IMG/VR virus record: IMGVR_UViG_3300029787_000063
Location: 1 to 54,208 of that record
DNA from: a virus
Lineage: Duplodnaviria > Caudoviricetes
DNA: 54,208 nt
Strand: one strand, 5' to 3'
Shown: in pieces, positions 1-53,892 of the stretch
Position numbering within the stretch: the stretch's first letter is position 1
Layout of the letters: every line of letters starts with the position of its first letter
The notes under the pieces: model-generated
Told to the model about the DNA's origin: nothing
What the model saw: the letters and a program-made list of their open reading frames with translations, nothing else
Database searches by the model: none
Translations under genes and position numbers: made by a program

Positions 1-885
1 ATACACAATGCGCGACCTGTACCATTAGAAAATGTATCAACCTTAAAAGATGTAGAAGATGAACTCAGAGACTTTGTTAAAAATGGTTTTAAGCCCGGTT
101 ATCAAATTGGACTTAAAAACTTCGATAAAATATTTTCAACTTACACTGGTCAGTTCATTACTGTTACTGGTATTCCTTCTAGCGGTAAGTCTGACTTCGT
201 TGATCAAATGGTTGTTGGTTACAATAATCTATACGGTTGGAAAACTGCGTATGCTAGCCCTGAAAATCAACCGGTCTACTTACACGCGCACAAATTAATG
301 CGTAAACATTGGCAAGATATGCCAAGAACTGATGATATTGGCAATGATAAATGGCAAAACGTAACTAACCATGTAAACGACAATTATTTCTTTATTGATA
401 TGGACAAATATAGTTTAGAGTCTGTACTGCGTAAAGGCGCAGAGCTTGTTAAACGTAAAGGTATTAAATGTTTAGTTCTTGACCCATTTAATAAGATCAG
501 AGACGTCGATGCTAAGTCAGATGATGTAAACCGTTACACAATGGATTATCTAGCTAAGATCGAAGCTTTTTGTAAAAAGTATGATGTATTAACTTTTATT
601 GTAGCTCACCCTACTAAAATGTATAAAACACAAGATGGTAAAATTGAAGAGCCTACAATGTACAATATAAAAGGTGGTGGTGAATGGTATGATGCTAGTT
701 ACCATGGGTTATTGGTACACAGAGATTACGAAGCAAAAACAACTAAAGTTAAAGTACTTAAAGTTAAGTTTCAAAATCTAGGTGAAAACGGTGCTGAATC
801 ACATTTTACATGGGAGCCACGTTCTGGTAGTTTTATACCACACGAATCTGCAGTTGACGAAGCAGAGCCAATGCCTTGGGAATAA
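1..885 (+). CDS. DNA primase-helicase, SF4 (T7 gp4/Twinkle-like) helicase domain, 5'-truncated by the window edge
   Basis: Frame 1 is open from base 1 (IHNARPVPLENV...). Walker A GIPSSGKS lies just before the listed ATG at 208. Walker B LVLDPFN and the IVAHP and IKGGGEW motifs are typical of SF4 helicases. Confidence 0.9.
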   Translation: MHNARPVPLENVSTLKDVEDELRDFVKNGFKPGYQIGLKNFDKIFSTYTGQFITVTGIPSSGKSDFVDQMVVGYNNLYGWKTAYASPENQPVYLHAHKLMRKHWQDMPRTDDIGNDKWQNVTNHVNDNYFFIDMDKYSLESVLRKGAELVKRKGIKCLVLDPFNKIRDVDAKSDDVNRYTMDYLAKIEAFCKKYDVLTFIVAHPTKMYKTQDGKIEEPTMYNIKGGGEWYDASYHGLLVHRDYEAKTTKVKVLKVKFQNLGENGAESHFTWEPRSGSFIPHESAVDEAEPMPWE

Positions 886-1149
886 ATGGTTTGGCAGAAG
901 AAACGTACAGGTAAACAACCTACAGCTAGAACATGGACACCAGAAGAAATGAAAGCTGTTGGTTGGTGTTTATCAAATAATATATTTATAAGCTGTATAC
1001 CAAACTGGAAAGAAAAAGGTATTAATTGGTTTATAGATATTAAGATAAATAAAAACGTGCATAGAGATCCTACCAAGTACGAAGATGAAGAAGTGTTTAA
1101 AAAAATATATGAATATTACAAATACTATTATGACAAACATAAAAAATGA
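886..1149 (+). CDS. hypothetical protein
   Basis: 87-aa ORF abutting the helicase stop and overlapping the next gene; no motif recognised. Confidence 0.7.
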   Translation: MVWQKKRTGKQPTARTWTPEEMKAVGWCLSNNIFISCIPNWKEKGINWFIDIKINKNVHRDPTKYEDEEVFKKIYEYYKYYYDKHKK

Positions 1150-1789
1150 TTTTTATACCGCTAATGAAGCTTTTGAGTATTTTTATAAATACATAAGTAA
1201 ATATGGTACAGACTTCAGAGATACTAAAACTTTATTTAATGTAGGATTTTCAATACATAAACCAATGAAAAATGATATAGTAATTAAAGAACGTAAATGG
1301 AGTAAAGAGTATGCTGAGGCTGAATGGCAATGGTATTTATCTGGTGATCGTAATATAAAAAAACTAGGTAAAATATATGGTAAAATACCTGAAATATGGA
1401 AACGTATGGCTGATAAAAATGGTAACGTAAACTCTAATTATGGTTGGCAATGGCAACGTAATGATCAATTAGATAAAGTTATTAACTTACTAAAGCATGA
1501 TAAATATACTAGGCAAGCTGCTATATCAATATATGATGCTAAAGAGTTTGATAGCTACTCATATGATACGCCTTGTACATATGCTGTGCAGTTTACAATT
1601 GTAGATAATAGATTACATATGAGTGTTGTTATGCGTAGTAATGATTTATGGTACGGCTTTTGCAACGATCAATATTGTTTTTCTAAGTTACAAGAACTTG
1701 TAGCTAAAGAAATAAATATGGATGTTGGTATGTATTATCATTTTGCACATAACTTACATATATATAACGATAAACTAAATTTACTATGA
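1130..1789 (+). CDS. thymidylate synthase-fold enzyme, probably dCMP hydroxymethylase/methylase-like (T4 gp42 type)
   Basis: Catalytic DTPC, MRSNDLWYGFCND, HNLHIY and NSNYGW motifs. Asp rather than Asn at the specificity position. ATG 1130 is preferred over the ORF-track start at 1085. Confidence 0.85.
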   Translation: MTNIKNDFYTANEAFEYFYKYISKYGTDFRDTKTLFNVGFSIHKPMKNDIVIKERKWSKEYAEAEWQWYLSGDRNIKKLGKIYGKIPEIWKRMADKNGNVNSNYGWQWQRNDQLDKVINLLKHDKYTRQAAISIYDAKEFDSYSYDTPCTYAVQFTIVDNRLHMSVVMRSNDLWYGFCNDQYCFSKLQELVAKEINMDVGMYYHFAHNLHIYNDKLNLL

Positions 1790-2592
1790 CATACTACTTA
1801 TATCACATACCAGGCAAAAAGGTTGGTGTAACAACTAATCTTGAAGAACGTGTTCACAAACAACAAGGTTATTATCCTGGTGAATACGAAATAATAGAAA
1901 CATCTGATGATATAGACTTTATATCTTTAGGTGAGCAGATAATGCAAAGAAACTACGGCTATAAGGTAGATGAAGTACCTTATAATAAACTTAAATTTAA
2001 TAATATGAAAATGAATATAAATGTTACAGAGCAAACAACAACCTTCCCTTGCCCTGTTAACAAGTTAAAAGGAAGGTTAATGGACTGTACAGGTATGACT
2101 TGGAATACTGAGTTTGGTTCTTGTATAATAACAAAAGAGTCTATAAAATGGATTATAGATAATGTTAAAGAGTCTATGTATAATCCAAAAAGATGTTATA
2201 TATATAACAAAGCATTTGCTAGATACTTTGATAATAACGATCCATACAACAATAAAACAATAACTGGTGGTTTATCACCTGAAAATCAAAACGGTAGAGT
2301 TGTGTCTAGATTTGATAAAATAAGATTATGGGCTCTTGAAAGAGGCTTATATGATAAAGGCGATCCTAAAACACAAACATTAAAGTTAATGGAAGAAGCT
2401 GGTGAAATATGTAGAGCTGTGTTAAAAGATGATAGAGAACAAATTATTGATGGTATTGGTGATTGTGTTGTTGTATTAACTAATCTAGCTCGTCTTTCAG
2501 GTACTAATATTGAAGAGTGTATTGATGCTGCGTACGACGAGATAAAAAACAGAACAGGTAAAATGAGTAACGGAACATTTAAAAAAGATTAA
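1786..2592 (+). CDS. fusion of an N-terminal GIY-YIG-like domain and a C-terminal MazG-like NTP pyrophosphohydrolase
   Basis: The C-terminal KLMEEAGEI...IIDGIGDCVVVL is a MazG EExxE/D motif. The N-terminal YYLYHIPGKKVGVTTNLEERV resembles the GIY-YIG core. ATGA overlap with the upstream gene. Confidence 0.8.
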   Translation: MTYYLYHIPGKKVGVTTNLEERVHKQQGYYPGEYEIIETSDDIDFISLGEQIMQRNYGYKVDEVPYNKLKFNNMKMNINVTEQTTTFPCPVNKLKGRLMDCTGMTWNTEFGSCIITKESIKWIIDNVKESMYNPKRCYIYNKAFARYFDNNDPYNNKTITGGLSPENQNGRVVSRFDKIRLWALERGLYDKGDPKTQTLKLMEEAGEICRAVLKDDREQIIDGIGDCVVVLTNLARLSGTNIEECIDAAYDEIKNRTGKMSNGTFKKD

Positions 2593-2593
2593 T

Positions 2594-2872
2594 ATGTCAA
2601 GTAGAGAAATATATGATGCACAAGATGGTATCGCTGTAAGAGAGTCATACGGCTTTCGCGATCCAGTAGTTAAAAACGTAGTTGATAAGTTTGTTAATAG
2701 GTCTAACGTAGGTTATGATAAATATGGCAGAACATTAGATGACGAACGTAGAAATAAACATAAAGATTTATTAGGTTATCTAAACGATATACAAGAAGAG
2801 CTTATGGATGCTATATTATATATACAAGCTGCACGTGAAGAATTAACTGAGTACAATGGCGCGCAGTTATAA
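2594..2872 (+). CDS. small all-alpha NTP-pyrophosphatase-like phage protein
   Basis: GYDKYGRTL...DIQEELMDAILY acidic helix motif resembling MazG/dUTPase all-alpha superfamily members. Confidence 0.55.
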   Translation: MSSREIYDAQDGIAVRESYGFRDPVVKNVVDKFVNRSNVGYDKYGRTLDDERRNKHKDLLGYLNDIQEELMDAILYIQAAREELTEYNGAQL

Positions 2873-3311
2873 GAAAAAGCGTGGTCCCGTTAGAGCAAAA
2901 AAAGTCACATACGACGGGATCAAATTTGCTTCTGGTTTAGAGAAGTATATGTATGTAGCTTTAAAAAAAGCTAAAATAAAAGCTAAATACGAAGGTCAAA
3001 CATATACAATACAAGAAGGTTTTACGTTTAACAACGAGAGTTATGAAAGACAAAGCAACGGTAAAGGTGAGTTAGTTAATAGAGGTTGTAAAAAAATACT
3101 ACCAATTAGATATACTCCTGATTTTATAAGTAGTTCATTTATAATTGAATGTAAAGGTAGAGCTAACGAATCTTTTCCAATGCGTTGGAAATTATTTAAA
3201 AAATATGTAAATATCAACATGAAACATGTAACTTTATATAAACCACAAAACCAGAAGGAATGTGACGAGGTAATTAAATTAATAATCAAAAAATCTAAAA
3301 ATGAAAAATGA
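2856..3311 (+). CDS. PD-(D/E)XK endonuclease, T7 endonuclease I/Holliday-junction resolvase-like
   Basis: FASGLE, YTPDF and IIECKG motifs. Confidence 0.8.
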   Translation: MARSYKKKRGPVRAKKVTYDGIKFASGLEKYMYVALKKAKIKAKYEGQTYTIQEGFTFNNESYERQSNGKGELVNRGCKKILPIRYTPDFISSSFIIECKGRANESFPMRWKLFKKYVNINMKHVTLYKPQNQKECDEVIKLIIKKSKNEK

Positions 3312-3441
3312 TTGGAATTTAAGCCTTGGATTCTTTCCTGGCTTACTATTAGGCGTAAGATCTTATGCCGAAGAATATAGAACAAATCACGTTTTATATT
3401 TAATATTCATAGACATTTGCTTAACAATATATAAAAATTAA
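3301..3441 (+). CDS. small hypothetical protein (46 aa; below ORF-track cutoff)
   Basis: Manual translation MKNDWNLSLGFFPGLLLGVRSYAEEYRTNHVLYLIFIDICLTIYKN*. It fills the gap between the endonuclease and RNR on the coding strand. Confidence 0.65.
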   Translation: MKNDWNLSLGFFPGLLLGVRSYAEEYRTNHVLYLIFIDICLTIYKN

Positions 3442-3445
3442 ATTA

Positions 3446-5317
3446 ATGATAGATTTAAACAATAAAATACTGTCTGATATTACAGTTCATATGAAATATG
3501 CTAAATATATACCTGAGCTTAATAGAAGAGAAACATGGGAAGAGTTGGTCACTCGGAATAAAGAAATGCACCAAAAAAGATACCCAGAATTATACAACCA
3601 AATTGAAGAAACCTACAGATATGTCTATAAGAAAAAAGTTTTACCAAGTATGCGATCGCTACAGTTCAGCGGAAAGCCAATTGAAATTAGTCCAAACCGT
3701 TTATACAACTGTAGCTACTTACCTATCGACCACACTGATAGTTTTAGTGAGTGTATGTTCCTTTTGTTATCTGGCTGCGGTGTTGGTTATAGTGTTCAAA
3801 AACATCATACTACCTCTCTTCCACATATAACAAAACCATTTCAAGGTAGAACTAGACGATTTGTTATTGGTGATTCAATTGAAGGTTGGTCTGATTCAAT
3901 AAAAGTTTTAATTAAGTCTTATTTGGGCTCTAAGAGATCGTCTAAGGTCAAGTTTGATTATTCTGATATTAGACCAAAGGGAGCTAGACTCGTAACCTCT
4001 GGTGGAAAAGCTCCAGGACCACAACCACTAAAAGAGTGTTTACTAAAAATTAAAGGAATATTAGATGCAAAAGAAGATGGAACACAATTGTCCACGTTGG
4101 AAGTTCACGACATCGTCTGTCATATTGCAGATGCTGTATTGGCTGGCGGAATACGACGTGCCGCCCTCATATCATTATTTTCAGCGTACGATGAAGAAAT
4201 GATTTCCTGTAAATCAGGAAGTTGGTGGGAGAAAAACCCACAAAGAGGTAGAGCTAATAACTCTGCTGTTTTAATGAGACATAAAATAACAAAGGAATTT
4301 TTCTTAGATCTGTGGAAACGTATTGAATTATCCGGAGCTGGTGAACCTGGTATCTACTTTAACCATGACAAAGATTGGGGAACTAATCCGTGTTGTGAGA
4401 TTGCCTTGCGACCTTATCAGTTCTGTAACTTGTGCGAAGTTAATGTAAGTGACGTCACAAGCCAAGAGGATTTGAATAGTCGGGTGAAAGCTGCGGCCTT
4501 TATTGGCACGCTTCAAGCAGGTTATACGGAATTCCACTATCTAAGAGAAATATGGCAAGAAACAACAGAACGCGACGCGCTTATAGGTGTGTCCATGACA
4601 GGGATCGGGAGTGCCGTTGTGCTCCAGCTGGATATGAAGGCCGCTGCAAGTATCGTAAAACGAGAAAACACCCGGGTTTCAAAATTAATAGGTATAAACA
4701 AAGCGGCGCGTACAACCTGCATCAAGCCAGCAGGGACTACGTCGCTAGTGCTGGGTACGTCATCAGGTATACATGCTTGGCACAACAATTATTATATAAG
4801 AAGATTAAGAGTAGGTAAAAATGAATCTATATATAATTATTTAAAACAAAATCATCCTGAGCTTGTACAAGATGAATATTTTAGACCACACGACACTGCT
4901 GTTATTGAAATACCACAGTCAGCACCAAAAGGTTCTATATTAAGAACTGAGTCTGCTTTTGACTTACTCAAACGAGTTAAAAAAGTTGCTACCGAATGGG
5001 TTAAACCTGGTCACCGTAAAGGATCAAACACCCACAATGTGTCTGCAACAATTAGTCTAAAAGAAGGTGATTGGAAAAAAGCTGGTGAATGGATGTGGGA
5101 TAACAGAGAGTGTTATAATGGTTTATCTGTACTACCTTACGACGGTGGTACGTATACTCAAGCTCCTTTTGAAGATATAACTAAAAAAGAGTTTGATAAG
5201 TTAGTTAAGCATTTACAAGATATAAATTTAGAAAATGTAATTGAAGAAACTGACGAAACTGATCTATCTGGTGAATTAGCTTGTGCCGGTGGATCTTGCG
5301 AAATAACAAGCTTATAA
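3446..5317 (+). CDS. nrdJ: class II (adenosylcobalamin-dependent) ribonucleotide reductase, monomeric type
   Basis: LPSMRSLQF, YNCSY, GGIRRAALI, TNPCCEI (thiyl-radical Cys), TCIKPAGT and the C-terminal CAGGSC pair; no adjacent beta subunit. Confidence 0.93.
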   Translation: MIDLNNKILSDITVHMKYAKYIPELNRRETWEELVTRNKEMHQKRYPELYNQIEETYRYVYKKKVLPSMRSLQFSGKPIEISPNRLYNCSYLPIDHTDSFSECMFLLLSGCGVGYSVQKHHTTSLPHITKPFQGRTRRFVIGDSIEGWSDSIKVLIKSYLGSKRSSKVKFDYSDIRPKGARLVTSGGKAPGPQPLKECLLKIKGILDAKEDGTQLSTLEVHDIVCHIADAVLAGGIRRAALISLFSAYDEEMISCKSGSWWEKNPQRGRANNSAVLMRHKITKEFFLDLWKRIELSGAGEPGIYFNHDKDWGTNPCCEIALRPYQFCNLCEVNVSDVTSQEDLNSRVKAAAFIGTLQAGYTEFHYLREIWQETTERDALIGVSMTGIGSAVVLQLDMKAAASIVKRENTRVSKLIGINKAARTTCIKPAGTTSLVLGTSSGIHAWHNNYYIRRLRVGKNESIYNYLKQNHPELVQDEYFRPHDTAVIEIPQSAPKGSILRTESAFDLLKRVKKVATEWVKPGHRKGSNTHNVSATISLKEGDWKKAGEWMWDNRECYNGLSVLPYDGGTYTQAPFEDITKKEFDKLVKHLQDINLENVIEETDETDLSGELACAGGSCEITSL

Positions 5318-5331
5318 CTAAAACAATTATT

Positions 5332-5751
5332 ATGAACAAATTATTTTTAACAATGGCTTTAGCTTTGATTACTACTATTGCTTCAGCTCAGTTTTCTGTA
5401 TTAACTACCTTTAACGAAGGAGTTGATTCAACATGGAATGTTACAGATAAAATAGGTATCGGTTACCAAGTAAACGATAAACTATTAATAGCTGCAACTA
5501 AAGATGGTGACGATGCTTATGAGTTATTAGGACGTTATGATGTATACGAAGGTGTTTGGGCTACGTGTATATATAATAGTTATGAAGACTCAGTAGCTGA
5601 AACAAAAGATAGGTTAGATGTAGGTCTAGGTTATTCTTATTGTTTGTGGAAAGCTCTTTATGTTGAGCCTTACTTTACTATGCCACTCAGCAAAGACGCT
5701 GATGGTAAAAGAGAAGGTGAACTTAAATTAGGAGTATCTTACAAATTTTAA
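5332..5751 (+). CDS. small outer-membrane beta-barrel protein with signal peptide
   Basis: Signal peptide MNKLFLTMALALITTIASA|QF, amphipathic beta strands (IGIGYQVN, VGLGYSY, LYVEPYFT) and a C-terminal LKLGVSYKF BAM-type signal. Start reassigned from 5281. Confidence 0.8.
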   Translation: MNKLFLTMALALITTIASAQFSVLTTFNEGVDSTWNVTDKIGIGYQVNDKLLIAATKDGDDAYELLGRYDVYEGVWATCIYNSYEDSVAETKDRLDVGLGYSYCLWKALYVEPYFTMPLSKDADGKREGELKLGVSYKF

Positions 5752-5778
5752 ACTAGTATTAATTAAAACAAAAACAAA

Positions 5779-6021
5779 ATGGAAAAAGTAATGAATTATT
5801 TTACAGGATTTTTTGGTGGATTAGTAACAATTATGATACACATAATACCTGTAACAATTTTATGGAGTCTATTAACAGGAGATGTAATATTCGGTATGGA
5901 TGTTATAGGTAATTTTATGGCGATGATAAACGCTTTAGGTAATGCAGGTTTTGTAGGCCTAGTAGCTTTAGTATTTGCTATGTACTTCTTTATGGACTGT
6001 AAAAAAGACTGCAAAAAATAA
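5779..6021 (+). CDS. small integral membrane protein (2-3 hydrophobic helices)
   Basis: 80 aa, almost entirely hydrophobic and Gly-rich; A-rich leader. Confidence 0.75.
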   Translation: MEKVMNYFTGFFGGLVTIMIHIIPVTILWSLLTGDVIFGMDVIGNFMAMINALGNAGFVGLVALVFAMYFFMDCKKDCKK

Positions 6022-6053
6022 ATTAAATATAAACAATTAAATAAAATTAAATT

Positions 6054-6248
6054 ATGAGTTTTAATAAATTAGATTCTTTATTCGACGATTTGCAAGACAC
6101 TATTAACGATTGTCAAAGTGATGTTAGTAAATTTGTTGAAGGAAATAATTCCGCAGGAACGCGGGTAAGAAAAGCTATGCAAGCTGTTAAACAGTTAGCA
6201 CAAGCTGTTAGAGTTGAAGTTCAAGATCAAAAGAACGCACAATTCTAG
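6054..6248 (+). CDS. histone H1-like protein, Hc1 family
   Basis: KFVEGNNSAGTRVRKAM matches the GNxxAGTRxRK signature of Bacteroidota/Chlamydia Hc1-like proteins. Confidence 0.8.
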   Translation: MSFNKLDSLFDDLQDTINDCQSDVSKFVEGNNSAGTRVRKAMQAVKQLAQAVRVEVQDQKNAQF

Positions 6249-6265
6249 TTTTATATTATTAAATG

Positions 6266-6294
6266 AAAAAGGGAGCTTATTGCTCCCTTTTTTT
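6266..6294. terminator. bidirectional rho-independent terminator between the convergent arms
   Basis: AAAAA-GGGAGC-TTATT-GCTCCC-TTTTTTT: perfect stem with an A-tract and a T-tract on either side. Confidence 0.9.
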
Positions 6295-6310
6295 ATATAA
6301 TCGTTTTATT

Positions 6311-6871
6311 TTAAACGCCTATTACTTTTTCTATATTAGCTGTTTGTACGCCGTCAATCTTTGCTATATTAGCAGGTGCTACACCATTTACATTGTTTCC
6401 ATAGCCACTAGGCGCGGCTGTATAGTCTACTGTTACAAATAATTCATATGCAGTTATACCCTGATTGTTAGGTTCTATTTTTACACTACAATCATTTATA
6501 TACCCCCACGTTAAAGCGCTCTCACCATCTTGTTGTTTTGTTGTAGCACTAGTTGTTTGTGTAGATGATGTACCTGTAAAACTTTCATTTTCTTCTGCAA
6601 AAGCATCATCTTCAGCGTGCACTAAAGACATTTGTACTGTTGATGCCCCAGCTCTACCTGCCTGACCAGTTAAAGATATAGTAAAACTATTAATTGTTGC
6701 GCTTTCAAGTGATGAATCTAAATCTGCTAATACACCTGTAAAATTACAAGTTGTGCTATTTTGTGTTACACCAGTACCTTCATCATTATCACCTATAATA
6801 GTATGTATGTTTGAGCTTGGCCAACCTGTTTGACTTGTTGTACTTGTTGGTCTTATTATTGCTGTTGGCAT
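6311..6871 (-). CDS. tail fibre-associated structural protein
   Basis: Thr/Ser-rich beta-type composition; TAATG coupling with the tail fibre gene. Confidence 0.6.
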   Translation of the reverse strand: MPTAIIRPTSTTSQTGWPSSNIHTIIGDNDEGTGVTQNSTTCNFTGVLADLDSSLESATINSFTISLTGQAGRAGASTVQMSLVHAEDDAFAEENESFTGTSSTQTTSATTKQQDGESALTWGYINDCSVKIEPNNQGITAYELFVTVDYTAAPSGYGNNVNGVAPANIAKIDGVQTANIEKVIGV

Positions 6872-9300
6872 TATGCTACTTCAACAAATGTATTATCTGG
6901 ATTAAACCAAACATTACCGTTAGACGCATGTGATACTTGATAACCTATAATACGAACGCAATCACCACTTGCAGATGGTGCTGTAGCTGTAGCATTTCCA
7001 GGTGTTCCAGCATTATCAGACTGAACATATAAAACATCTCCAATAGCACCTGGATCGTGATCTAAAGTAACCATACCTCTTAATAACATACCGTTTGTAT
7101 CTGATGCCGCTCCTAAAGCTACGGCTAGTAAGCCATCTGCTGTTGATACTGCATCTGCATTTGCTATTTCCCAAGTACCATCAGATTTATAATGATATAT
7201 TTTACCTACAGTCATAGACGTTGTACCACCAAAATAAACAACATCTCCATTGGCATCTCCATCTGTAGAGCTTGTTACAGCTAAAGTTCTAGTTGTACAA
7301 GCAATAGGGCCTGTAAAAGTTGCTAGCTTATCACTATCAAGTGTTAATACAGTCGATGTGCTTGCATTTCCATCAGTAGTACTAAATACTAATCTAGCTC
7401 CATTTTCACTAGCCGACCAAGCAGCTTCACAAAACGCTTCAATTTGAGCTCCAGTAGTTATCGTGTTACTTGCGTTCTCTGCTCCAGTAAACTTTATTAT
7501 TCCTAATCTATGGTCATTAGCCATAGCAGCGCCGTCGTCAGTACGTAGCTCAAGTTCAGCACCGTTAGTAGCGCTACTAGTATCAGTATCTTTACAAACT
7601 ACCCTTGCACCGTCGCCAGTAGTTTGTACTAAACCTTGAAATAAAGCACCGGTATCAAGAAGTCTTGCTATTTCTACTTCGTCAACTTTAAATAAATATC
7701 TACCGTCATGACTTGTGCTTGAAGTTGTATATGTATTAAATTCAGCATAGTCAATAGTTTGACCTCCACTATTGTAAACTGGTTGTATCACAAGCCTGTT
7801 TGTAGCAGAAGAACCTATGCTAAATGTAGGATTACCATTATTTACAGCATTATACATTGTTAGATCTCCAGCCGCTATATCTGTGGTAGCTCCAGCCGCG
7901 CCAAGCGAGGTTAAACCAGCTAGTGTTGTTATGTTTGGTTGAGTAGCTTGTGTTGTCGCTGTGTTTGGAGCTAAGCCAGCTATTGTTGCTACAGTTCCAG
8001 CCTCTCCAGTTGTATCTTGATTTAACGTAGGTATATTAGCGGCGTTTATAGTAGCTGTACCACTTATATCTGTGTCCCAACGATAATGCTCAGCCGCTAC
8101 AAAGTTATTTAAAGAATCATGGTCTATCTCTCCTGGAACAGCAACAGCTGTTATTGTAGTACCACTATTTGTTACACCAACACCACTCGAACCTAGTATA
8201 CTAAAATCAGCACTACCTCCTGTGTCTTCAGCTTTACTACCACCACCACTATCAGTTGTAATACTAACTCCAGTTATATCACCTGTATTTGTTGTATAAC
8301 CAGCACCATTAGTTATAGCATTATTATTTAAAGATATATCAGCTGATCCATCAAAAGCAACTCCTGCAATATTTCTTGCTGTTGTAAGTGTAGCTGCGCT
8401 TCCTGTTGTATCTTGATTAAGAGTTCCAACAGTAAAATCTAAAGTACCATCTGCATCTTGATAAGCTACTGTAATACCACTTTCAGTATTACTACTTACC
8501 ATAGCGCCTACTATATCTTGTACCTGTTCGTCGCTTAACTGTGTGTTAGTATCAGAAACAGTATTTGTAATTGTTACTGTTCCATCTGCTGTAGTTTCAC
8601 AAGTAATACCTGTTCCAGCAGCAAAAAATAAATCATCACCTTGTGTTATAGTAGTTGCATTAGTATCAGTAGTTGCAGATACTGTAAATCCACTTCCCAT
8701 TGTGTTAGTGTCAGTTACAGTTTCCGTTGCCGATGTTAAACCTGTAACATGGCCGTAAGTATCTAGCGTTATATCTTGTATATATGTTCTACCAGAATTA
8801 TTAACACTAGCTTGAGACGATGTGTCATCATGATTAATAGTAACTGTATCTGTTGCTCCAACCGCAGTAGTTATAGCGTTACCACCAGCTATGTCTAAGG
8901 TATTACCATGAGCTATAGTTTGGTTGCTACCACCATCACCAGTTAACGTAAAAGTTGTTAATTGATTTGTATTAGTATCAGAGACTGTATTAGTAAATGT
9001 TATTTTATCACTTGATCTAGCTATACTTAGTCCTGTTCCTGCTTCTAAAACTACATCATCTGTAGATGAATCACTACCTGTTAATCTAATTTTTTCTTCA
9101 TCACTATTATCTCCGTCTACACAAGAAACGCTATACGTAGTGTTTGCATCTGCTGCAATACTAGCTTTTACAATTTTATTATTTGAATCTAATCCTAAAT
9201 TACTACCACTAGCTATAGTACCAGAGTCAACATCTTCTAAGTATACGTCGTTACGAAATCTAGCTATAAAGTCTTGTATAAATTGACCTAGAAACTTCAT
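6871..9300 (-). CDS. tail fibre protein
   Basis: 809 aa, T/G/S/D/A-rich, with fibre-type motifs (LDTYGHVTG, AATLTTARNIAGVAFDGSADI) and internal repeats (TNTVSDTNT x2, TLNQDTTG x2). Confidence 0.8.
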   Translation of the reverse strand: MKFLGQFIQDFIARFRNDVYLEDVDSGTIASGSNLGLDSNNKIVKASIAADANTTYSVSCVDGDNSDEEKIRLTGSDSSTDDVVLEAGTGLSIARSSDKITFTNTVSDTNTNQLTTFTLTGDGGSNQTIAHGNTLDIAGGNAITTAVGATDTVTINHDDTSSQASVNNSGRTYIQDITLDTYGHVTGLTSATETVTDTNTMGSGFTVSATTDTNATTITQGDDLFFAAGTGITCETTADGTVTITNTVSDTNTQLSDEQVQDIVGAMVSSNTESGITVAYQDADGTLDFTVGTLNQDTTGSAATLTTARNIAGVAFDGSADISLNNNAITNGAGYTTNTGDITGVSITTDSGGGSKAEDTGGSADFSILGSSGVGVTNSGTTITAVAVPGEIDHDSLNNFVAAEHYRWDTDISGTATINAANIPTLNQDTTGEAGTVATIAGLAPNTATTQATQPNITTLAGLTSLGAAGATTDIAAGDLTMYNAVNNGNPTFSIGSSATNRLVIQPVYNSGGQTIDYAEFNTYTTSSTSHDGRYLFKVDEVEIARLLDTGALFQGLVQTTGDGARVVCKDTDTSSATNGAELELRTDDGAAMANDHRLGIIKFTGAENASNTITTGAQIEAFCEAAWSASENGARLVFSTTDGNASTSTVLTLDSDKLATFTGPIACTTRTLAVTSSTDGDANGDVVYFGGTTSMTVGKIYHYKSDGTWEIANADAVSTADGLLAVALGAASDTNGMLLRGMVTLDHDPGAIGDVLYVQSDNAGTPGNATATAPSASGDCVRIIGYQVSHASNGNVWFNPDNTFVEVA

Positions 9301-11921: not shown

Positions 11922-14513
11922 TTATTTATTTATTAATTTTTCTACAGTACCATCATCGTATATGTAGAATAAAAGTTTATTTTTATTTATTATTGCAGGT
12001 CTACCTAATAGATCTGTTATCATTAGTAGTTTTTTATTACCTCTTTTTAATAGTGGTCCTGTCCAACCATCTGCACAATGATTATACGTAGCTTGACATA
12101 TTGTGTCCCACTCGTTTTCACAACAGTAATCATCTACACTTAGCACCCAAGAGTAACACTCATCGTTTAACCAATAAGGATTACCAGGTCCTGTTATACA
12201 ACTCGCTGCATATAAGCAGGAAGCTGAATCATTAACGTTTGCGGTAATATCATAATTGTACGCGCCGTTATCCATACACCCATAAACAACTTCAATACAC
12301 GAACCATTGTCAGTATTAGCCAACGAATCATAGTTAAGAGCAGTGCTATCCATGCAACCATAAATATAATCAATACAGCTAAAATCTTCTGTGTTTGCTT
12401 CCGGGTTATAGTTAAGCATACTAGGGTCAGTACACCCGTAAATATAAGGCACGCAAGAATTATTGTCTGCATTTGCTAGTGGATTAAAGTTAAACATCGT
12501 TGAGTCTGTACAGCCGAATACGTAAGGTATACAACTACCATCATCAGCATTAGCTAACGGGTTATAGTTAAACATTGTCGGGTCAGTACATCCATACAAA
12601 AATGCTATACACGTATCTACTGTATTAGCATTAGGGTTGTAATTATAAGCAAGTGGCTGCATACACCCGTATATAACCGGTATACATCCACCGTTATCAA
12701 CATTAGCCGTGGTATCATAATTAAACGCAGTAGAATCCATGCAACCAAATATAGCTATATCAACACAACTTCCATCATCAATACCAGCGACATATCCTTG
12801 GGTATAATATTGTAGATAACCTGGATTGGTACAACCAGGACTGTAATAACAAGTATCATTAGTATTTGCTAAAGCATTATAATTATAAGCTAGAGTGTCC
12901 ATGCAGCCTAAAACTACAGGTATACATTCAACACCACAATAAGGTTGAGCTTCGTAAATATCTAATGCGCTTCTATAATTTCTTAATTTATTTTCATTAG
13001 GACCAGGCCAAGGATTATTACCCTCATATATTATAGTTCCATAACTATTTTCTACTTTAAAAGAATTTTGTATTGTTTGTATATCTAGTTGTTGTGTATT
13101 CTGTTGAGGTGTAGGTATTTCAAAGTAGTAAAAATAAACCTCATCATTAGAATTAAGAGTTAATTCAAATGTATCAGAATAAATACCATTATCTAGTATT
13201 TTAAATTGCCATAAAGAATCTCCTTGCTCAACGCCTAACCAGCAAGCACCCCATGAATCACCACCATCATCAAATAATATTAAATCATAAGTACAAGGTG
13301 AAGTTCTTAACATACGATCTGCATTAGGATCATAATTAAAAGCAGCAGGATCAGTACAGCCATAAGTAGCAAATGTCATACAACTTCCATCATCAACCGT
13401 AGCTAAAGAATCATATTCTATATAAGCTGGAGTTGTACATCCATATATTATAGTATCATTATTACATTGATCAGATATATAAGGATTAGACGATGCTGTA
13501 TAACCAAAGTTAGGTGGACTTAATAAAAATACAGTATCTTCACAATCTACATTTGTAACTAAACATCCACCAACAACTGATCCACCACCAATACCATCAC
13601 CGTATGTATCGTCAATAGTAAATACTAATGTGTCTCCAATTGGAGCACAAACTTGAGTATGTATTGTTTGTCCTGTTTGTGTGTAGTTATAAGTACCACT
13701 AGGCACAGAATATATAACATTACCGTTAGCTGTTATTTGCCAAGATGTTTCACTTGGCCAGTTGTCTAGTTTTATAGCTACATCAAGTAATGTTTCTATA
13801 GAATCATTACAAGCAACATCCATTATACAAGAACCATCATCAACATTTGCCCAAGGATTATAGTTTGTAGCACTAGGATCAATACAGCCAAAATAATATA
13901 TACAAGTCCCATTATTATGCGTAGCTGCTGGATCATAATTAGAAGATACCGAGTCAGTACATCCGTATATAACTGTATATGGATCACTAATCATTATATC
14001 ATCTATAGATATATCACTAGTATAACTAGGACCTGTAATAGCTTTAAACTTTATTTTAAAAGAAGTCGTAGACATTATTGGATAATAAGCTAGCTTCCAA
14101 TGATTACCTTGATCTCCGGATATAGTATCTAATGCTGTATACCCATTGTTATCTAACACGCCTATTTCTAAATTACCCATTGCAGCACCATACATGTGGT
14201 ACCAAAATGATAATACTTTACCAGGTGTTTGTGACACATCAAATGTAGGCGTATATATTGTAAAAACTTTACCACCATAGTTTTGTCCAGATGACTCTAC
14301 ATAAAAATAAATACCATTACCCGTAGTATGATCTCCATTAGGACCAGTTGCTATTGAACTAGTTGGTCCTTGCGCTAACCACCAATCTCCAAAGTCATTT
14401 GTATCTTGCTCTAGCTCTACAAAATTTTCAAAGTCGTGAATCCAAGGAAAAGTATTAACTTGTCCTAAGCTTAATAATGGTAGTAAAAATAATATTAATA
14501 TAAATTTTTTCAT
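11922..14513 (-). CDS. secreted MAM-domain protein with 13 Cys-containing GCxD repeats and a T9SS-like C-terminal sorting domain
   Basis: Signal peptide MKKFILILFLLPLLSLG|Q. MAM motifs TGPNGDHT, YFYVESS, LSFWYHMYG and DISIDDI. GC(T/M)D-x-A-x-NY-x-P-x-AN-x-DDGSC repeats. Tail KKLLMITDLLGR...FYIYDDGTVEKLINK. Start 14513 gives an ATGA overlap. Confidence 0.85.
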   Translation of the reverse strand: MKKFILILFLLPLLSLGQVNTFPWIHDFENFVELEQDTNDFGDWWLAQGPTSSIATGPNGDHTTGNGIYFYVESSGQNYGGKVFTIYTPTFDVSQTPGKVLSFWYHMYGAAMGNLEIGVLDNNGYTALDTISGDQGNHWKLAYYPIMSTTSFKIKFKAITGPSYTSDISIDDIMISDPYTVIYGCTDSVSSNYDPAATHNNGTCIYYFGCIDPSATNYNPWANVDDGSCIMDVACNDSIETLLDVAIKLDNWPSETSWQITANGNVIYSVPSGTYNYTQTGQTIHTQVCAPIGDTLVFTIDDTYGDGIGGGSVVGGCLVTNVDCEDTVFLLSPPNFGYTASSNPYISDQCNNDTIIYGCTTPAYIEYDSLATVDDGSCMTFATYGCTDPAAFNYDPNADRMLRTSPCTYDLILFDDGGDSWGACWLGVEQGDSLWQFKILDNGIYSDTFELTLNSNDEVYFYYFEIPTPQQNTQQLDIQTIQNSFKVENSYGTIIYEGNNPWPGPNENKLRNYRSALDIYEAQPYCGVECIPVVLGCMDTLAYNYNALANTNDTCYYSPGCTNPGYLQYYTQGYVAGIDDGSCVDIAIFGCMDSTAFNYDTTANVDNGGCIPVIYGCMQPLAYNYNPNANTVDTCIAFLYGCTDPTMFNYNPLANADDGSCIPYVFGCTDSTMFNFNPLANADNNSCVPYIYGCTDPSMLNYNPEANTEDFSCIDYIYGCMDSTALNYDSLANTDNGSCIEVVYGCMDNGAYNYDITANVNDSASCLYAASCITGPGNPYWLNDECYSWVLSVDDYCCENEWDTICQATYNHCADGWTGPLLKRGNKKLLMITDLLGRPAIINKNKLLFYIYDDGTVEKLINK
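12208..12913 (-). repeat. tandem array of nine ~26-aa GCxDxxAxNYxxxANxDDGSC coding repeats
   Basis: Read from the translation; four more copies lie further toward the N-terminus. Confidence 0.9.
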
Positions 14514-14884
14514 GCTTCTCCACATTTTTTTGAAGGATTACCTACTTGTCTCCAGTCTTGTTTAACCCAAGTTTTTAAGCTACCACCACTACTAGTACCT
14601 GTAACATTACTTTTACTAGATCTTTTATATTTACCAGCTTTACCAGCAGCACGCTTAGCTCTTATAACTTTTTGTCTTTCAGCTTGACTCATACTAGCTA
14701 TTTTAGCTTTAGGCAGACATACTTTTTTAGTGCCTCCGCCTTTAGCTTTTGTTGGTTTAACTTTTGTTGGAGAAGATTTACGGCAACTACCTTTAGCTCC
14801 TTTAGCTGTACCAGGAACTCGCTCGTAACCTTTCCAACAAGGTAATGGGCTATTTTTAGCAAACTTAGACTTAATATCGTACAC
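14510..14884 (-). CDS. small basic protein (CWKGY motif)
   Basis: K/R/G/S-rich 124 aa; PCWKGYERVPG and LKTWVKQDW motifs. Confidence 0.75.
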   Translation of the reverse strand: MYDIKSKFAKNSPLPCWKGYERVPGTAKGAKGSCRKSSPTKVKPTKAKGGGTKKVCLPKAKIASMSQAERQKVIRAKRAAGKAGKYKRSSKSNVTGTSSGGSLKTWVKQDWRQVGNPSKKCGEA

Positions 14885-14887
14885 TAC

Positions 14888-15277
14888 TTATTTCTTTTTA
14901 GTTTTTGCTTTATACTTTTTCAACATTTCTGCTTTCTGTTTAGCGGTTAATGTCTTAGCAGCAAACTTTTTATTAGCTGTTTTTGGGTTTTCTAATTTTA
15001 GTTTCATAGATGAAGCTTTTTTCATAGTAGCCATAGACTTTTTAAGCATAGCCATAGACTTTTTAAGTTTCATAGCAGACTCTTTTTTAAGCTTCATAGC
15101 AGCTTTTTTCATAGTTGCAGCTGAGTCTTTCATTTTTTTCATTTTCATAGCTGAAGCTTTTTTCATAGCGGCAGGTGATTTATCAACAGCTGCTTTAAAC
15201 TTAGGGTTATTATCTAATTTTCCAGCTGCAGAAGCTGCTTTTAAACCTTTGTTAAATTTAGTTGGTGCTTTTTTCAT
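14888..15277 (-). CDS. Lys/Ala/Met-rich histone H1-like repeat protein
   Basis: Heptad-like repeats SAMKMKK / AAMKLKK / SMAMLKK / SMATMKK. Confidence 0.75.
   Translation of the reverse strand: MKKAPTKFNKGLKAASAAGKLDNNPKFKAAVDKSPAAMKKASAMKMKKMKDSAATMKKAAMKLKKESAMKLKKSMAMLKKSMATMKKASSMKLKLENPKTANKKFAAKTLTAKQKAEMLKKYKAKTKKK
15000..15172 (-). repeat. degenerate 21-24 bp tandem coding repeats
   Basis: The exact 19-mer TAGCCATAGACTTTTTAAG occurs at 15028-15046 and 15049-15067, with degenerate flanking copies. Confidence 0.85.
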
Positions 15278-15278
15278 T

Positions 15279-15821
15279 TTAAATTTTGTTTTTTATATGT
15301 TTATACATTGAGTTACCTAGTTTCTCGCCCATTTTACTATCAGACTTATAGTGAGCTCGGGCAACTCTACGACTATAAGATATGTTTTCACCTGTTTTAG
15401 TAAAAGCTGATTTAGCTTTAGGATGTTTATCACCTAAAACTTTAGCTATTAATATACCTTGAACAGAGTGTCCTGATGGATATGATGGTGTCTTCATTGA
15501 AGACATTTCATAATCCTTCATTTTTATATTCATTTTTTTAGCTAATACTTTTGGTCTTGGCCTATTAAAATGTTTTTTTAATTCTAATATTATTGGTGCA
15601 GACTCTTTTATAAGTTTAGCAGGTATTGTTTTATCGTAATCTTTTATATTGTTATCTTTAGCTGTCTTAGCAAAAGCAGATTCAATATTATCAAATTTTT
15701 TTACAAACTCTTTTTTTAAAGGTATTTTAGATAAAGCTTTAACTTCTTGCGAGGTGTCAAATGTATTATCACCTGGTGGCTTCATTTTTTTAAAACTTGA
15801 TATGTTAAAATCTTTTAACAC
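15279..15821 (-). CDS. PAP2 superfamily (acid phosphatase/vanadium haloperoxidase-like) soluble protein
   Basis: All three motifs present: KKHFNRPRP, SYPSGH and SRRVARAHYKSD. Confidence 0.9.
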   Translation of the reverse strand: MLKDFNISSFKKMKPPGDNTFDTSQEVKALSKIPLKKEFVKKFDNIESAFAKTAKDNNIKDYDKTIPAKLIKESAPIILELKKHFNRPRPKVLAKKMNIKMKDYEMSSMKTPSYPSGHSVQGILIAKVLGDKHPKAKSAFTKTGENISYSRRVARAHYKSDSKMGEKLGNSMYKHIKNKI

Positions 15822-18433: not shown

Positions 18434-21400
18434 TTACAACGATTTACCATCTAAGGTAACTCCAAAGCTTTTCTTTTTATTTTTCTTTTTTTGTTTTTTA
18501 ATTTTTTCTTTAACAGCTTCAACTTCTTTGTTTTCAATACCAACATCCCATTTGCTCCAACCTAAACCTACAGCTAGTCTTTGCCACCACTCATTTTCAC
18601 TATTTAAAGCAGCTCTAATATTTTCAACTTTTCTATGTAATCTAGCTACAGGTATATTAGTTGCGCCTTCTATTAACTGCGCATACGCGCCCCATATAGG
18701 ATTATCTAAATCAAAAGTGTCCATTTCAGGTATTACTTTTTTATTAAACTCTAAACTTTTTTCAAAACCATCAAGTTTTCTTTTCTTAATACCTATAGGT
18801 GGTGATAATTGTATTAACTCTTCACTTATAGTATCTAATTGTTTGTTCCACTTTTTATCTTGATTTTCATGGTACTTTACTAAACCATTTTTAATAGTAG
18901 CAACTATAGCACCAGCAACACCGCTACCTCTTAATATAGTATCTATAGTACCGTTAATAACTCTATCTCTTTTACTTTTGAAAAACTTTTGTGTTTTTTC
19001 GTCTTCTTCATCGTCTTCGCTAAATAACATTGCAAACAATGCTGTTTGTAAAGCACCAAATATTATATTTTGCACGGCGCCATAATATATTATTCTTGAT
19101 ATATTAGACATATCGCTTTTAACTTGACTAGTATATGGCTTTGATTTTCTTCTATTAATTAAATCTAAGCCAGCTTTTTTAATTAATCTAACATACTGTG
19201 ATGGTGTATTTTGAAAAGCTAGTATTAATCTACCCAGTACAGATGCTTGTTGCTGTGAAATCATATCAGGTCTAGCTGACTGCTGTGTAGCTTCTGATAC
19301 TTCTTGAAAATCAGTAAATGCTTTTGCTTCTGCTTCTTTTTGTGATAAGCCGTGTGACTTATATGTGTTAACTCTATTACGATACATACCAGCACCACCT
19401 AATGATATTGCAAAACTATCAGCCATTTGTGTAGGTAAAAAACCTATTTGTAATAAATATTTTACAGCGGCCCTAACTTTACCAGCTGCTGTTTTTGATC
19501 TACCTACAGCTGAAGCTATTTCGTTAGCATTAATATCAAAAGCAACACCAGCTCTTCTTTGTTTTAATACATCAGAATTAAATATCATGCTAAAGTCTTT
19601 CCAAAACTGTGGTTGATTAGCAAACGCTGCCGACGCTTTAAATATATTGTTATCACCAAAGTTTATAAAGTTAACAGTAGATAACGTCTGTAATACAGCT
19701 GATCTAGCATTAAAAAACATTGTAGCACCAATAGATCCATTTAAATAATCTAAAAAGCCATTTACTATTTTGTTTGGCCCAACAGTTCTATTAGTACCAT
19801 TTTTAGTTCTATATAATATATCTTTTAACGCTTCTTTAAAATCAGCACCATATGCAGCTTCTATTTTATTTAAATTTTCTTTATTAAATATTATATCAGC
19901 GTTTTCTTGAAACTCGTTAAAAAACTTAGCCCTACCAACTCTCCCTGTAGCATCTGCTAAATCTGTTCTTATATCACCAGCTTCCCAATGTTCACCTGGC
20001 TCTATATAACCCTCATCCATTCTAGATATTTTACCAATAGTATCTGCAAAAGCTTGTAACTCAGGATCGTTTTTAACTAAATCAGATAATTCTTTTACAT
20101 CGGTTTTTGAAGTACCAGGTATTTCAAAACCAGCTTTATCCCACAAATAAACTCTAACAGCATCTGAATAATAGTAATCACCATCAGGTGTTTTATTTGT
20201 AAGTTTTTTACGTAAATCAGGAAACTGTTTTATTAAGTTTTTATAATCAGTAGCTATAGCTTGCTTAGCAGCTGTTAATTCTTGATACGCTCTGTTTAAT
20301 GGTTTAAGTAAAGCTTGTTCAAAAAACGCTCTATGTTTATTACCTTTTTCACCTTTACCCATAAAGTTGTAAAGTAAACCAGAAAAGTCTTCGTGTGATG
20401 GTGGTACAAAAAATCTAAACTTACCTTTGCCTTCACCACGTTTTCTAGCTTTTGTTTGTGAGTATCTTTTCTTTGATTCAATACCAGTAACGTCTTGTAA
20501 TATTTTATTAAACTCACTATCCATATCTTTACTAAACTGTACTTTAGCTTGTTGTATTTTTGATTTAACATCAAATTGATCAAGCATGTTTTTAACAGCT
20601 TGTACGTTTTGTAATGCGTCGTCTGCAAAATAAAAGTCATTATAACCTTCAGATACTTTATCAGCCATCCAAAGCGCTTTAGCTTCACTAGTACTATTAC
20701 CTAAACCAGTTATATTTTTTAAAGGTATGTTTAAGCCGTTAGCTTTTAAAAAGTCAAATATAGCTTGTTGAGCAGCAGGTGGTCTAGCAGTTAATACAAA
20801 CATGTTTTCTGGACCAAACTTCTTTTGTAGCTTTAATGCTTTATTAAATAATGGCGCTAATTTACCTTTTACAACTCTATTAAAATCTGAAAAGTCAAAC
20901 GTATAACCTTGATCTTGTAAGTCTTGATACGTGCTAGCAAACTGTTCAGCGTTTAAAGTACCTGTCTCACCATCTGGCGATGTGTATTTAACTAAAGACT
21001 CTGTTGTTGCTAATGTATCATCAAAGTCTAATACTGTAATGCCTTTAGCTTCTTTTGAATAACTTGTAGTTCTAGCTTTCAAAGCGGCATTACTAAGTTT
21101 ATTGTTTTTGTTTATATCTTTACTAAAACTTAATTTAGAAATAAATTCACCATATCTAGGTGCAACTTCACCAGCTAATTGTTTTATGATAATTTCGTTT
21201 TGTAAATCTATATTAGCAGAACCATCTTTGTACTTAATATTGTTTACGCCAAAAAATTCAGCTATAGTTACTCCTTCTTTTGCAAAAACATACATGTTTA
21301 AATCTATACCAGAAGCAGCTAATCTAACAACGGATGCATAACCATTAGGAAGTTTAAGTTCTCCACTTAAAAGTCTAGGAACAATTTTTTCATAATAAAT

Positions 21401-53867: not shown

Positions 53868-53892
53868 GCTATCACCGGGTTGTAGTGATAAC
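53868..53892 (-). other. intergenic stem-loop after groES
   Basis: Minus strand GTTATCACT-ACAACCC-GGTGATAGC (two G-U pairs); no U-tract follows. Confidence 0.45.

Follow-up and report, generated by a model that had tools for sequence, protein, structure and literature searches.

A Short Enzyme of the Thymidylate Synthase Fold in a Relative of Flavobacteriaceae Phages Is Very Probably a dCMP 5-Hydroxymethylase

Introduction

Cytosine modification is a known anti-restriction strategy. Well-known systems of this kind include phage T4 with its deoxycytidine monophosphate (dCMP) 5-hydroxymethylase gp42, the homologues of thymidylate synthase (ThyA) with an aspartate at position 177 (E. coli ThyA numbering) that were described in the MetaGPA study (PMC8670742), and annotated Bacteroides phage homologues. 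Here, we analyze an open reading frame (ORF) at positions 1130–1789 (+ strand) of the IMG/VR virus record IMGVR_UViG_3300029787_000063, the entire stretch of 54,208 bases being referred to as the window. The source databases and all four PHROG matches label this ORF thymidylate synthase. Judging from its active-site residues, the encoded enzyme is very probably a dCMP 5-hydroxymethylase, and the combined reading, in which this enzyme feeds 5-hydroxymethylcytosine (5hmC) or a derivative into the phage DNA, is the one we consider probable. That Asp-type ThyA homologues exist in non-T4 phages is already published, and the label dCMP hydroxymethyltransferase is already in place for close homologues from Bacteroides phages. 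In the literature searched, including PMC8776804 and PMC13432879, no link of hydroxymethylcytosine to flavobacterial phages or to these Bacteroides phages was found, and supplements may hold more.

T4 gp42 (PDB 1b49, 1b5d, 6a9a) shares with the window protein the ThyA fold and all 16 active-site residues compared. However, the two proteins are only about 23% identical and differ in length (246 versus 219 amino acids, the window protein ending seven residues after its His-x-Tyr motif) and at positions 126/127, where the window protein has Arg-Gln and gp42 Arg-Arg. The phages differ as well: the window derives from a podovirus-like relative of Flavobacteriaceae phages of about 65 kb, and no gp1-type kinase, glucosyltransferase or DNA polymerase was recognized in it. 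The nearest named relative is found in the group of Bacteroides phage BF503P2 (OP172671), whose protein of 226 amino acids is annotated as deoxycytidylate 5-hydroxymethyltransferase and is 46% identical over 99% of the length. It shares the 16-position signature, the short length and a 24-row clade of our tree with the window protein. Unlike the window phage, BF503P2 is a gut phage with a dUTPase nearby, a second, aberrant ThyA-like paralogue and strong depletion of CTAG and GATC. The annotation of the BF503P2 protein is automatic, and no chemical evidence for it was found, the Bacteroides phage paper examined being concerned with a different phage set.

The best PDB match by sequence (E 5.8e-17) as well as by fold is MilA, the cytidine monophosphate (CMP) 5-hydroxymethylase of mildiomycin synthesis (PDB 5jnh, 5b6d). 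MilA shares Asp at positions 143 and 177 with the window protein, but has the ribose-type residues Ala176/Lys133 instead of Ser170/Arg128, is 325 amino acids long, and serves antibiotic synthesis, not DNA. The enzyme of Xanthomonas phage Xp12 (MT664984) shares the ThyA fold, Asp177, a Ser-x-Tyr motif and a pre-replicative route to C5-modified cytosine, but carries Asn three residues before the catalytic Cys, Pro147 and Leu165, and its product is methylated. Finally, the Asp177-type homologues of the MetaGPA study likewise come from uncultured phages and combine Asp177 with a residue other than His at position 147; the excerpts consulted do not mention this particular flavobacterial lineage, and the supplements may list members of it (PMC8670742).

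Excerpts of the published work assign a meaning to several of these residues. Position 177 is reported to decide between deoxyuridine monophosphate (dUMP) and dCMP, position 143 to correlate with a methyl or a hydroxymethyl product, and Asn169 to mark the 5-hydroxy-dCMP synthases, a rule upheld by nine chosen homologues (PMC13326640). The water added by gp42 is held by Ser94, Tyr96 and the Asp that precedes the Cys by three residues; the exchanges D145N, Y96F and S94N leave no product, and Arg220 is named as one of the pterin-water contacts (PMC6400193). Ser167 and Arg126 are the mark of a deoxy substrate, and the ribose preference of MilA stems from Ala176 and Lys133, the double exchange A176S/K133R switching MilA to dCMP (PMC5175136). 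Across 433 homologues, no positions distinguish cytosine-modified from unmodified viral contigs better than 177 and 147, with Asp177, non-His147 homologues being associated with the modified ones (PMC8670742), and N177D changes turn ThyA toward dCMP (cited in PMC8670742, PMC13326640).

Active Site of the Window Protein

Translation from the ATG at 1130 yields 219 amino acids with the N-terminus MTNIKNDFYTANEAFEYF. A second in-frame ATG lies upstream at 1085; the start at 1130 is favored because homologues have lengths of 218–226 amino acids. The protein contains MRSNDLWYGFCND, and the GAT at 1667–1669 is codon 180, in frame (1667 − 1130 = 537 = 179 × 3). A sequence-only reading had noticed an Asp motif ending at this codon in a supposed thymidylate synthase. 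Indeed, in pairwise HMMER comparisons with PDB chains, Asp180 aligns with the Asp of T4 gp42 (mrsndvvfgfrnd; Asp179) and of MilA (mrandafrgavsd) and faces Asn in a ThyA (qrsadvflgvpfn), and MAFFT, run with E. coli ThyA (from NC_000913), likewise places it opposite Asn177. The same reading had described other blocks as resembling gp42 more than ThyA, which agrees with the HMMER alignment: within PEIWKRMADKNGNVNSNYGW, 11 of 20 positions equal gp42 and 8 of 20 a bacterial ThyA (counted by eye), and DTPCT of the window pairs with SDFMCT of gp42. Overall HMMER scores amount to 65.4 bits for MilA, 59.1 for gp42 and 58.9 for E. coli ThyA. Since gp42 and ThyA score equally, it is the active-site residues, and not the sequence as a whole, that make the protein resemble gp42.

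Comparison at 16 signature positions (58, 80, 94, 143, 146, 147, 165, 166, 167, 168, 169, 173, 176, 177, 207 and 209) included references from named records: E. coli ThyA, T4 gp42, RB69 td, RB69 gp48, SPO1 gp29, the dUMP hydroxymethylase homologues of M6, phiW-14 and a ViI-like phage, Xp12, and several annotated phage homologues. At these positions, the window protein reads EWYDCTMRSNDGNDHY (E58, W80, Y94, D143, C146, T147, M165, R166, S167, N168, D169, G173, N176, D177, H207, Y209) and is identical to T4 gp42. None of the canonical ThyA residues Asn177, Leu143, His147 and Gln165 is present in it, their places being taken by D, D, T and M, respectively. The dUMP hydroxymethylases (SPO1, M6, phiW-14, ViI-like) depart from it by N147, N or Q165, and N177, the 5-hydroxy-dCMP synthase RB69 gp48 by E143 and N169, and the 5-methyl-dCMP enzyme of Xp12 by N143, P147 and L165.

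The codons of Ser102-Asn-Tyr104 (1433–1441, + strand) and of Asp146-Thr-Pro-Cys149 (1565–1576, + strand), the latter comprising the catalytic Cys (gp42 Cys148) and the Asp three residues earlier, reproduce the Asp145 and Ser94/Tyr96 signature of gp42, in which Glu may stand for the Asp (PMC6400193). Since gp42 D145N is inactive, the Asp three residues before the Cys can be regarded as the hydroxymethylation residue; Ser-x-Tyr alone does not discriminate, because it is also found in Xp12. Cys149, the general-acid Glu65 (gp42 Glu60) and Asp180 are invariant in a 50-sequence alignment. Moreover, a deoxyribose-type pocket is present (Ser170 at position 167, Arg128 at position 126), and Asp172 at position 169 is retained where RB69 gp48 has Asn. 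The match to PF00303 is clear (E 3.8e-28), but all seven NCBIfam ThyA equivalog models score far below their cut-offs (best 78.6 versus 327 bits). An AlphaFold2 model built from the 50-sequence alignment (predicted local distance difference test, pLDDT, 97.1) was compared with the PDB by Foldseek: MilA is the best match (query TM-score, TMq, 0.90; root mean square deviation 1.9), ThyA reaches about 0.81 and the T4 dCMP hydroxymethylase 0.77–0.78. As modelled, the window protein is the bare catalytic core of the ThyA fold.

Conservation and Phylogeny

D143, C146, T147, M165 and D177 are kept in all of 120 close homologues (72–97% identity, taken from among the matches listed by a protein search with at least 8000 matches), and D169 in 119 of them. 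Asp also occupies position 177 in every one of the 137 sequences without a gap there, out of 150 representatives at 50% identity. Relatives of the gene number 528 in IMG/VR, and both MRSND....G..ND and DTPCT were found in 80 of 80 IMG/VR loci.

A tree was computed by a quick IQ-TREE search, supported by Shimodaira–Hasegawa-like approximate likelihood ratio tests (SH-aLRT) only. Its 78 rows comprise the window protein, 13 references, four of the 120 close homologues and 60 representatives, i.e., the first of the 150 that have 195–400 amino acids and ungapped signature positions; Xp12 was left out. ThyA is split from the hydroxymethylase side at 100% SH-aLRT, and the window protein stands on the hydroxymethylase side in a clade (24 rows, 99% support) that consists of short proteins and includes that of BF503P2. 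The dUMP hydroxymethylases are nested within the Asp-type radiation, several branches are long, and this tree gives no supported placement of gp42 relative to the window protein. Alignment and tree with gp42, ThyA and SPO1-type enzymes, as proposed at the outset, thus gave a signature identical to gp42 and a position apart from ThyA. The initial choice between hydroxymethyl, methyl and otherwise C5-modified dCMP is narrowed to hydroxymethyl by D143, the retained D169, Ser167/Arg126 and the tree.

Some homologues deserve separate mention. Inside the 24-row clade, the sub-clade of P0127, P0136, P0137, P0138, P0141 and P0147 retains D143, C146 and D177 and has Asn147, Ala or Cys165, and Ile or Gln168, a mixture of cytosine- and uracil-type residues. 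The second ThyA-like paralogue of BF503P2 (L013, record positions 34973–35779; 268 amino acids) has Leu in place of both the general-acid Glu58 and Gly173, forms the longest branch of the tree (4.66) and adjoins the dUTPase; it may be inactive or have another function. In Enterococcus phage VPE25 (L105, record positions 31028–34941), a gene annotated as ‘thymidylate synthase’ encodes D143, T147, M165 and D177 and adjoins genes annotated as dUTPase, beta-glucosyltransferase and nucleotide-sugar synthetase-like protein, a gene content which suggests glucosylated hydroxymethylcytosine in VPE25-type enterococcal phages.

The Adjoining MazG-Domain Gene

Directly downstream, at 1786–2592 (+ strand), lies a gene for a protein of 268 amino acids with a C-terminal MazG domain (PF03819 at residues 195–256, E 1.2e-7; phrog_1992, E 7.8e-35), the start of which overlaps the hydroxymethylase stop codon. 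A Y-x-Y...G...R...E pattern marks its N-terminal domain, which is followed by a middle domain, a disordered linker (residues 156–171) and the MazG domain. Its AlphaFold2 model (pLDDT 84.8), searched as a whole with Foldseek, matched only MazG, the mammalian dCTPase DCTPP1 and HisE, none of them at E ≤ 0.001. A MazG-domain gene directly follows the hydroxymethylase gene in 76 of the 80 loci, and the other four end too early to judge; for eight of these 76 loci, BLAST matched just the MazG part (query residues 173–268), within ORFs of 97–100 amino acids. In T4, gene 56 encodes a dCTPase/dUTPase. By its domain, the MazG protein is a candidate for a dCTPase, i.e., for the part played in T4 by gp56.

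Relatives and Palindrome Avoidance

As judged by the terminase, the named relatives of the window phage are the freshwater podovirus MW202828 (63.6% identity) and the Flavobacterium elemo phages (46%), followed by Maribacter phage Panino, the Cellulophaga phages phi18:3 and phi38:1, and Tenacibaculum phage Gundel. All cultured relatives of the terminase infect Flavobacteriaceae, which makes the earlier assignment to a Bacteroidota phage plausible. No match to PF00303 was found in the six relative genomes searched (MW202828, elemoA, Panino, phi18:3, phi38:1 and Gundel). A further 80 IMG/VR loci collected by their terminase were left out of the comparison, most of them being short pieces from close relatives, too incomplete to call the gene present or absent. 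A syntenic relative, G004 (67,289 bases), does encode a hydroxymethylase, 72% identical to that of the window.

DNA of T4 containing 5hmC resisted 186 of 227 type II restriction enzymes (PMC7653180). Since such DNA resists most type II enzymes, modification predicts a relaxed avoidance of palindromes. We therefore counted palindromes against a maximal-order Markov expectation and scored each genome by the number of 4-mers (expected at least 15) plus 6-mers (expected at least 6) with a ratio of observed to expected (O/E) below 0.35. The window has no such 4-mer (lowest TCGA, 0.69), and GATATC (1 of 14.1 expected) and GGTACC (3 of 9.8) are its depleted 6-mers; in G004, GATATC is depleted (7 of 23.0). 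Among the relatives that lack the gene, depletion concerns GATC (0 of 193), CCGG (0 of 26) and five 6-mers in MW202828; GGCC (0 of 19), CATG (3 of 121), GATC (40 of 150) and four 6-mers in elemoA (50 kb); CCGG (0 of 78), CGCG (0 of 21), GATC (0 of 261) and six 6-mers in Panino; nine 6-mers in phi18:3; CGCG (0 of 34.5) and two 6-mers in phi38:1; and CGCG (7 of 20.7) and eight 6-mers in Gundel. The totals are 2 (window) and 1 (G004) for carriers of the gene and 7, 7, 9, 9, 3 and 9 for the six non-carriers. Both carriers thus lie below all six non-carriers, for which an exact one-sided rank test would give 1 in 28 if relatedness and differences between hosts are disregarded. Across 16 further 20-kb loci with the gene, no 4-mer palindrome falls under O/E 0.47. 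This weak depletion fits protected cytosines and is not proof of them.

The avoidance of GGTACC that persists in the window fits the report that KpnI, which recognizes this site, cut fully 5-methylated Xp12 DNA (PMC7653180). The two sites are also depleted in relatives without the gene, GATATC in elemoA (4 of 24.0 expected), phi18:3 (2 of 22.5) and Gundel (1 of 18.7), and GGTACC in Panino (0 of 16.8). This pattern suggests that the hosts commonly have EcoRV-like and KpnI-like enzymes which the putative modification does not block.

Proposed Pathway and Alternative Readings

Modelled on T4 gp42, Cys149 would attack C6 of dCMP, Asp180 would read and protonate N3 of the cytosine, and Glu65 would open methylene-tetrahydrofolate. 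The exocyclic methylene intermediate would then be captured by a water molecule placed by Asp146, Ser102 and Tyr104, instead of being reduced, to yield 5-hydroxymethyl-dCMP (5hm-dCMP). A ribonucleotide reductase encoded nearby and the adjoining MazG-domain protein may supply dCMP and keep deoxycytidine triphosphate (dCTP) low, and 5hm-dCMP would be converted to the triphosphate and enter the phage DNA, where 5hmC or a derivative would block restriction enzymes. Virion DNA with 5hmC or a derivative is likely from these comparisons. As to the modified-cytosine genome proposed by the sequence-only reading, we still infer it: the published association of Asp177 and non-His147 with modified contigs and the palindrome counts add to it, and the absence of a recognizable kinase takes from it.

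Several observations weigh against this reading. The nearest characterized enzymes are only 23–26% identical to the window protein, which stops seven residues after Tyr212 and lacks the C-terminal stretch of gp42 that includes Arg220. In addition, five of seven tested Asp-type metagenomic homologues adjoining deaminases made 5-methyl-dC (bioRxiv 10.1101/2024.12.05.627091), so that Asp177 alone cannot separate methyl from hydroxymethyl products. Pfam and PHROG recognized no deoxynucleoside monophosphate (dNMP) kinase, DNA polymerase, dCMP deaminase or glycosyltransferase among the 51 ORFs of the window, itself a fragment, in line with the initial remark that neither kinase nor glycosyltransferase was visible. 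A search beyond the window, suggested at the same time, came back empty: none of these functions was recognized in the extra 16 kb of G004, two of whose ORFs were outside the scan (129 and 51 amino acids, the former spanning a locus join). Likewise, searching the window and G004 for an N-terminal P-loop gave no match; many small ORFs lack an assignment. The absence of a recognizable kinase weakens the inference of a modified-cytosine genome; plain 5hmC would need no glycosyltransferase. The published assays in E. coli included a co-expressed phage dNMP kinase (PMC13326640; bioRxiv 10.1101/2024.12.05.627091), and RB69 gp48 without the kinase gave a mere trace, detectable by ion extraction (PMC13326640). 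Regarding the MazG protein, BLASTP of T4 gp56 against the fusion and against a neighboring ORF of 92 amino acids aligned only short pieces without significance (E 0.008 and 0.029; single comparison), which speaks neither for nor against it. An elemo phage carries a MazG-like gene and a DUF1064 gene without a ThyA homologue, so MazG is not specific to the hydroxymethylase, and this gene distribution indicates that MazG is older in the lineage. Finally, BF503P2 has the same signature and is depleted of CTAG (0 of 42 expected) and GATC (4 of 51; 24.6 kb), which means that the palindrome argument is not general, and the comparison includes just two whole genomes with the gene, with hosts differing between genomes.

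Part of this evidence is shared by a reading in which 5hm-dCMP is made but cytosine is not replaced wholesale: the DNA would hold little 5hmC, or the product would have another use, for example to drain or poison the dCMP pool of the host or as the precursor of some other compound. The lack of a recognized kinase, polymerase or transferase in the window and G004 would be expected here, as would the trace incorporation seen in E. coli with a related enzyme when no phage kinase was co-expressed (PMC13326640). We regard this reading as rather unlikely, because the active site is intact in 80 of 80 loci, MazG is adjacent wherever the locus is long enough to judge, genomes carrying the gene are far less depleted of palindromes, as expected if most cytosines are protected, and homologues of the Asp177 type show a statistical link to cytosine-modified contigs (PMC8670742).

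The product could also be methylated. A dCMP methyltransferase of the Xp12 kind would yield 5-methyl-dCMP and a genome with 5-methylcytosine (5mC), and Asp177 is indeed common to the window and Xp12 enzymes, as it is to the homologues adjoining deaminases, most of which made 5-methyl-dC (bioRxiv 10.1101/2024.12.05.627091). This is improbable, however, since the window protein agrees with gp42 at positions 143 (D), 147 (T) and 165 (M), for which Xp12, which is not among the rows of the tree, has N, P and L. Furthermore, gp42 D145N makes no 5hm-dCMP (PMC6400193), and no gene of the dCMP deaminase family was recognized nearby by Pfam or PHROG, unlike in published 5mC cassettes.

Very little speaks for an ordinary, divergent thymidylate synthase that converts dUMP to deoxythymidine monophosphate (dTMP) for nucleotide supply. 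Apart from the labels given by the databases and the four PHROG matches, there is the ThyX of MW202828, which lies in the same block after the primase/helicase gene, so that this slot can host a dTMP synthase. Against this stand residues 143, 147, 165 and 177, all unlike ThyA, the failure of the seven NCBIfam models, the fully supported split in the tree, and the published N177D changes that turn ThyA to dCMP (cited in PMC8670742, PMC13326640). Equally improbable is a flavin-dependent 5-hydroxy-dCMP synthase like RB69 gp48 or a CMP hydroxymethylase with ribose specificity like MilA, for although RB69 gp48 shares T147, M165 and D177 with the window and MilA is the best PDB match in sequence and fold, the window keeps Asp172 at position 169, where every tested 5-hydroxy-dCMP synthase has Asn (PMC13326640), and has Ser170/Arg128 in place of Ala176/Lys133, the very exchange that turns MilA to dCMP (PMC5175136).

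Gene Order and Neighboring Genes

The record is classified as linear, and CheckV estimates it to be 95% complete. It is a fragment, because position 1 falls inside the primase/helicase gene, and with about 16 kb of G004 absent from the window, its completeness would be nearer 80%. The order on the + strand is primase/helicase C-terminus, an ORF of 87 amino acids, the hydroxymethylase ORF, the MazG-domain protein, the ORF of 92 amino acids, a DUF1064 gene and a class II ribonucleotide reductase gene. Megablast of window positions 1–8000 against phage records found no match.

The C-terminal part of the primase/helicase, cut by the record start, occupies 1–885 (phrog_239, E 1.7e-37, profile positions 310–605); a full-length homologue of 568 amino acids with a Toprim domain is present in G004. 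The ORF of 87 amino acids that follows (886–1149) has no Pfam or PHROG family match and has a homologue in 45 of the 80 loci. In MW202828 (L018, 15959–16633), a flavin adenine dinucleotide-dependent ThyX stands in the block after primase/helicase, where the window has hydroxymethylase and MazG, and this nucleotide-metabolism slot appears to be swapped between relatives of the phage group.

In its first 160 residues (window 1786–2300), the MazG fusion shows invariant Y6, H7, G10, K12, G14, R22 and E50. An Atlas search with residues 1–160 returned T5orf172 (score 0.97), a family present on just 11–12% of the cluster members, so that this assignment is a lead only. We take T5orf172 to be a member of the GIY-YIG clan, to which kind the T4 host-DNA nuclease EndoII belongs, and by analogy a nuclease role of the N-terminal domain is conceivable. 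The idea that the missing kinase is hidden in the N-terminal 170 residues gained no support: they contain no P-loop, the Atlas pointed to T5orf172, and Foldseek matched the MazG domain only.

Downstream, the conserved ORF of 92 amino acids (2594–2872) has an invariant QEE.MD motif, occurs in 68 of the 80 loci and matches PHROGs of unknown function. The idea that it is a second MazG-like pyrophosphatase gained no support, given an hhalign probability of 1.35% to the MazG-fusion profile, no Pfam match, and Atlas hits to unnamed viral clusters only. The DUF1064 protein (2856–3311; PF06356, E 4e-10; phrog_190) bears the PHROG label Holliday junction resolvase and is found in 65 of the 80 loci. The class II (B12-type) ribonucleotide reductase, a supplier of deoxynucleotides, is encoded at 3446–5317 (phrog_367, E 4.3e-132; PF02867, PF21995). 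The reductase is of class II in both the window and G004; in the same place, the relatives L031, L034 and L040 (about 12400–15700) have two ORFs of 319–328 and 573 amino acids which, by eye, resemble class I small and large subunits.

The remainder of the window lies on the − strand and comprises structural and lysis genes, with terminase, portal, M15 peptidase, holin, two GroES-like genes and two virion proteins. The latter are giants of 2300 and 2901 amino acids (18434–25336 and 29766–38471) for a phage of about 65 kb, and the larger one contains a crAss-phage muzzle C-terminal domain (PF25729, E 8.7e-12). The GroES-like genes lie at 49226–49813 and 53892–54149, and relatives have a GroEL gene just past the window end. 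In G004, the additional 16 kb encode the primase N-terminus, an exonuclease, a sigma-factor-like protein, endonuclease V, an ATP-dependent ligase, GroEL and many proteins of unknown function. Seven G004 ORFs (L101 939–4106 and 6906–7301; L103 8111–8401) share a near-identical M-[AT]-F-K-[MIL]-K-G/K at or near the N-terminus, which in five of them continues with [SF]-P and looks like a shared leader or processing signal. This motif does not occur in the window, whose corresponding region is missing.

Implications

Considered together, the short hydroxymethylase and the GIY-YIG-like/MazG fusion might form a minimal, two-gene module for cytosine replacement in a widespread marine lineage that brings neither a DNA polymerase nor a kinase of its own; we put this forward tentatively, as the less probable outcome. 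In such a module, the CMP kinase, the nucleoside diphosphate kinase and the replicase of the Flavobacteriaceae host would handle the 5hm-dC nucleotides. The near absence of palindrome depletion suggests a replacement extensive enough to spare site avoidance, and the still-avoided GATATC and GGTACC would mark host enzymes unaffected by the modification.

Genome annotations that name genes of this type ‘thymidylate synthase’ are probably wrong. If our reading is true, a very common group of ocean Flavobacteriaceae phages, with 528 relatives in IMG/VR and at least 8000 protein matches, has 5-hydroxymethylcytosine DNA. Restriction, clustered regularly interspaced short palindromic repeat (CRISPR) and type IV defenses would then act differently on these phages, and library preparation, bisulfite-type and nanopore analyses, and virome quantification would be affected by the altered behavior of their DNA. 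Moreover, a natural replacement of cytosine without phage kinase or polymerase would bear on the minimal number of genes that such a replacement takes.

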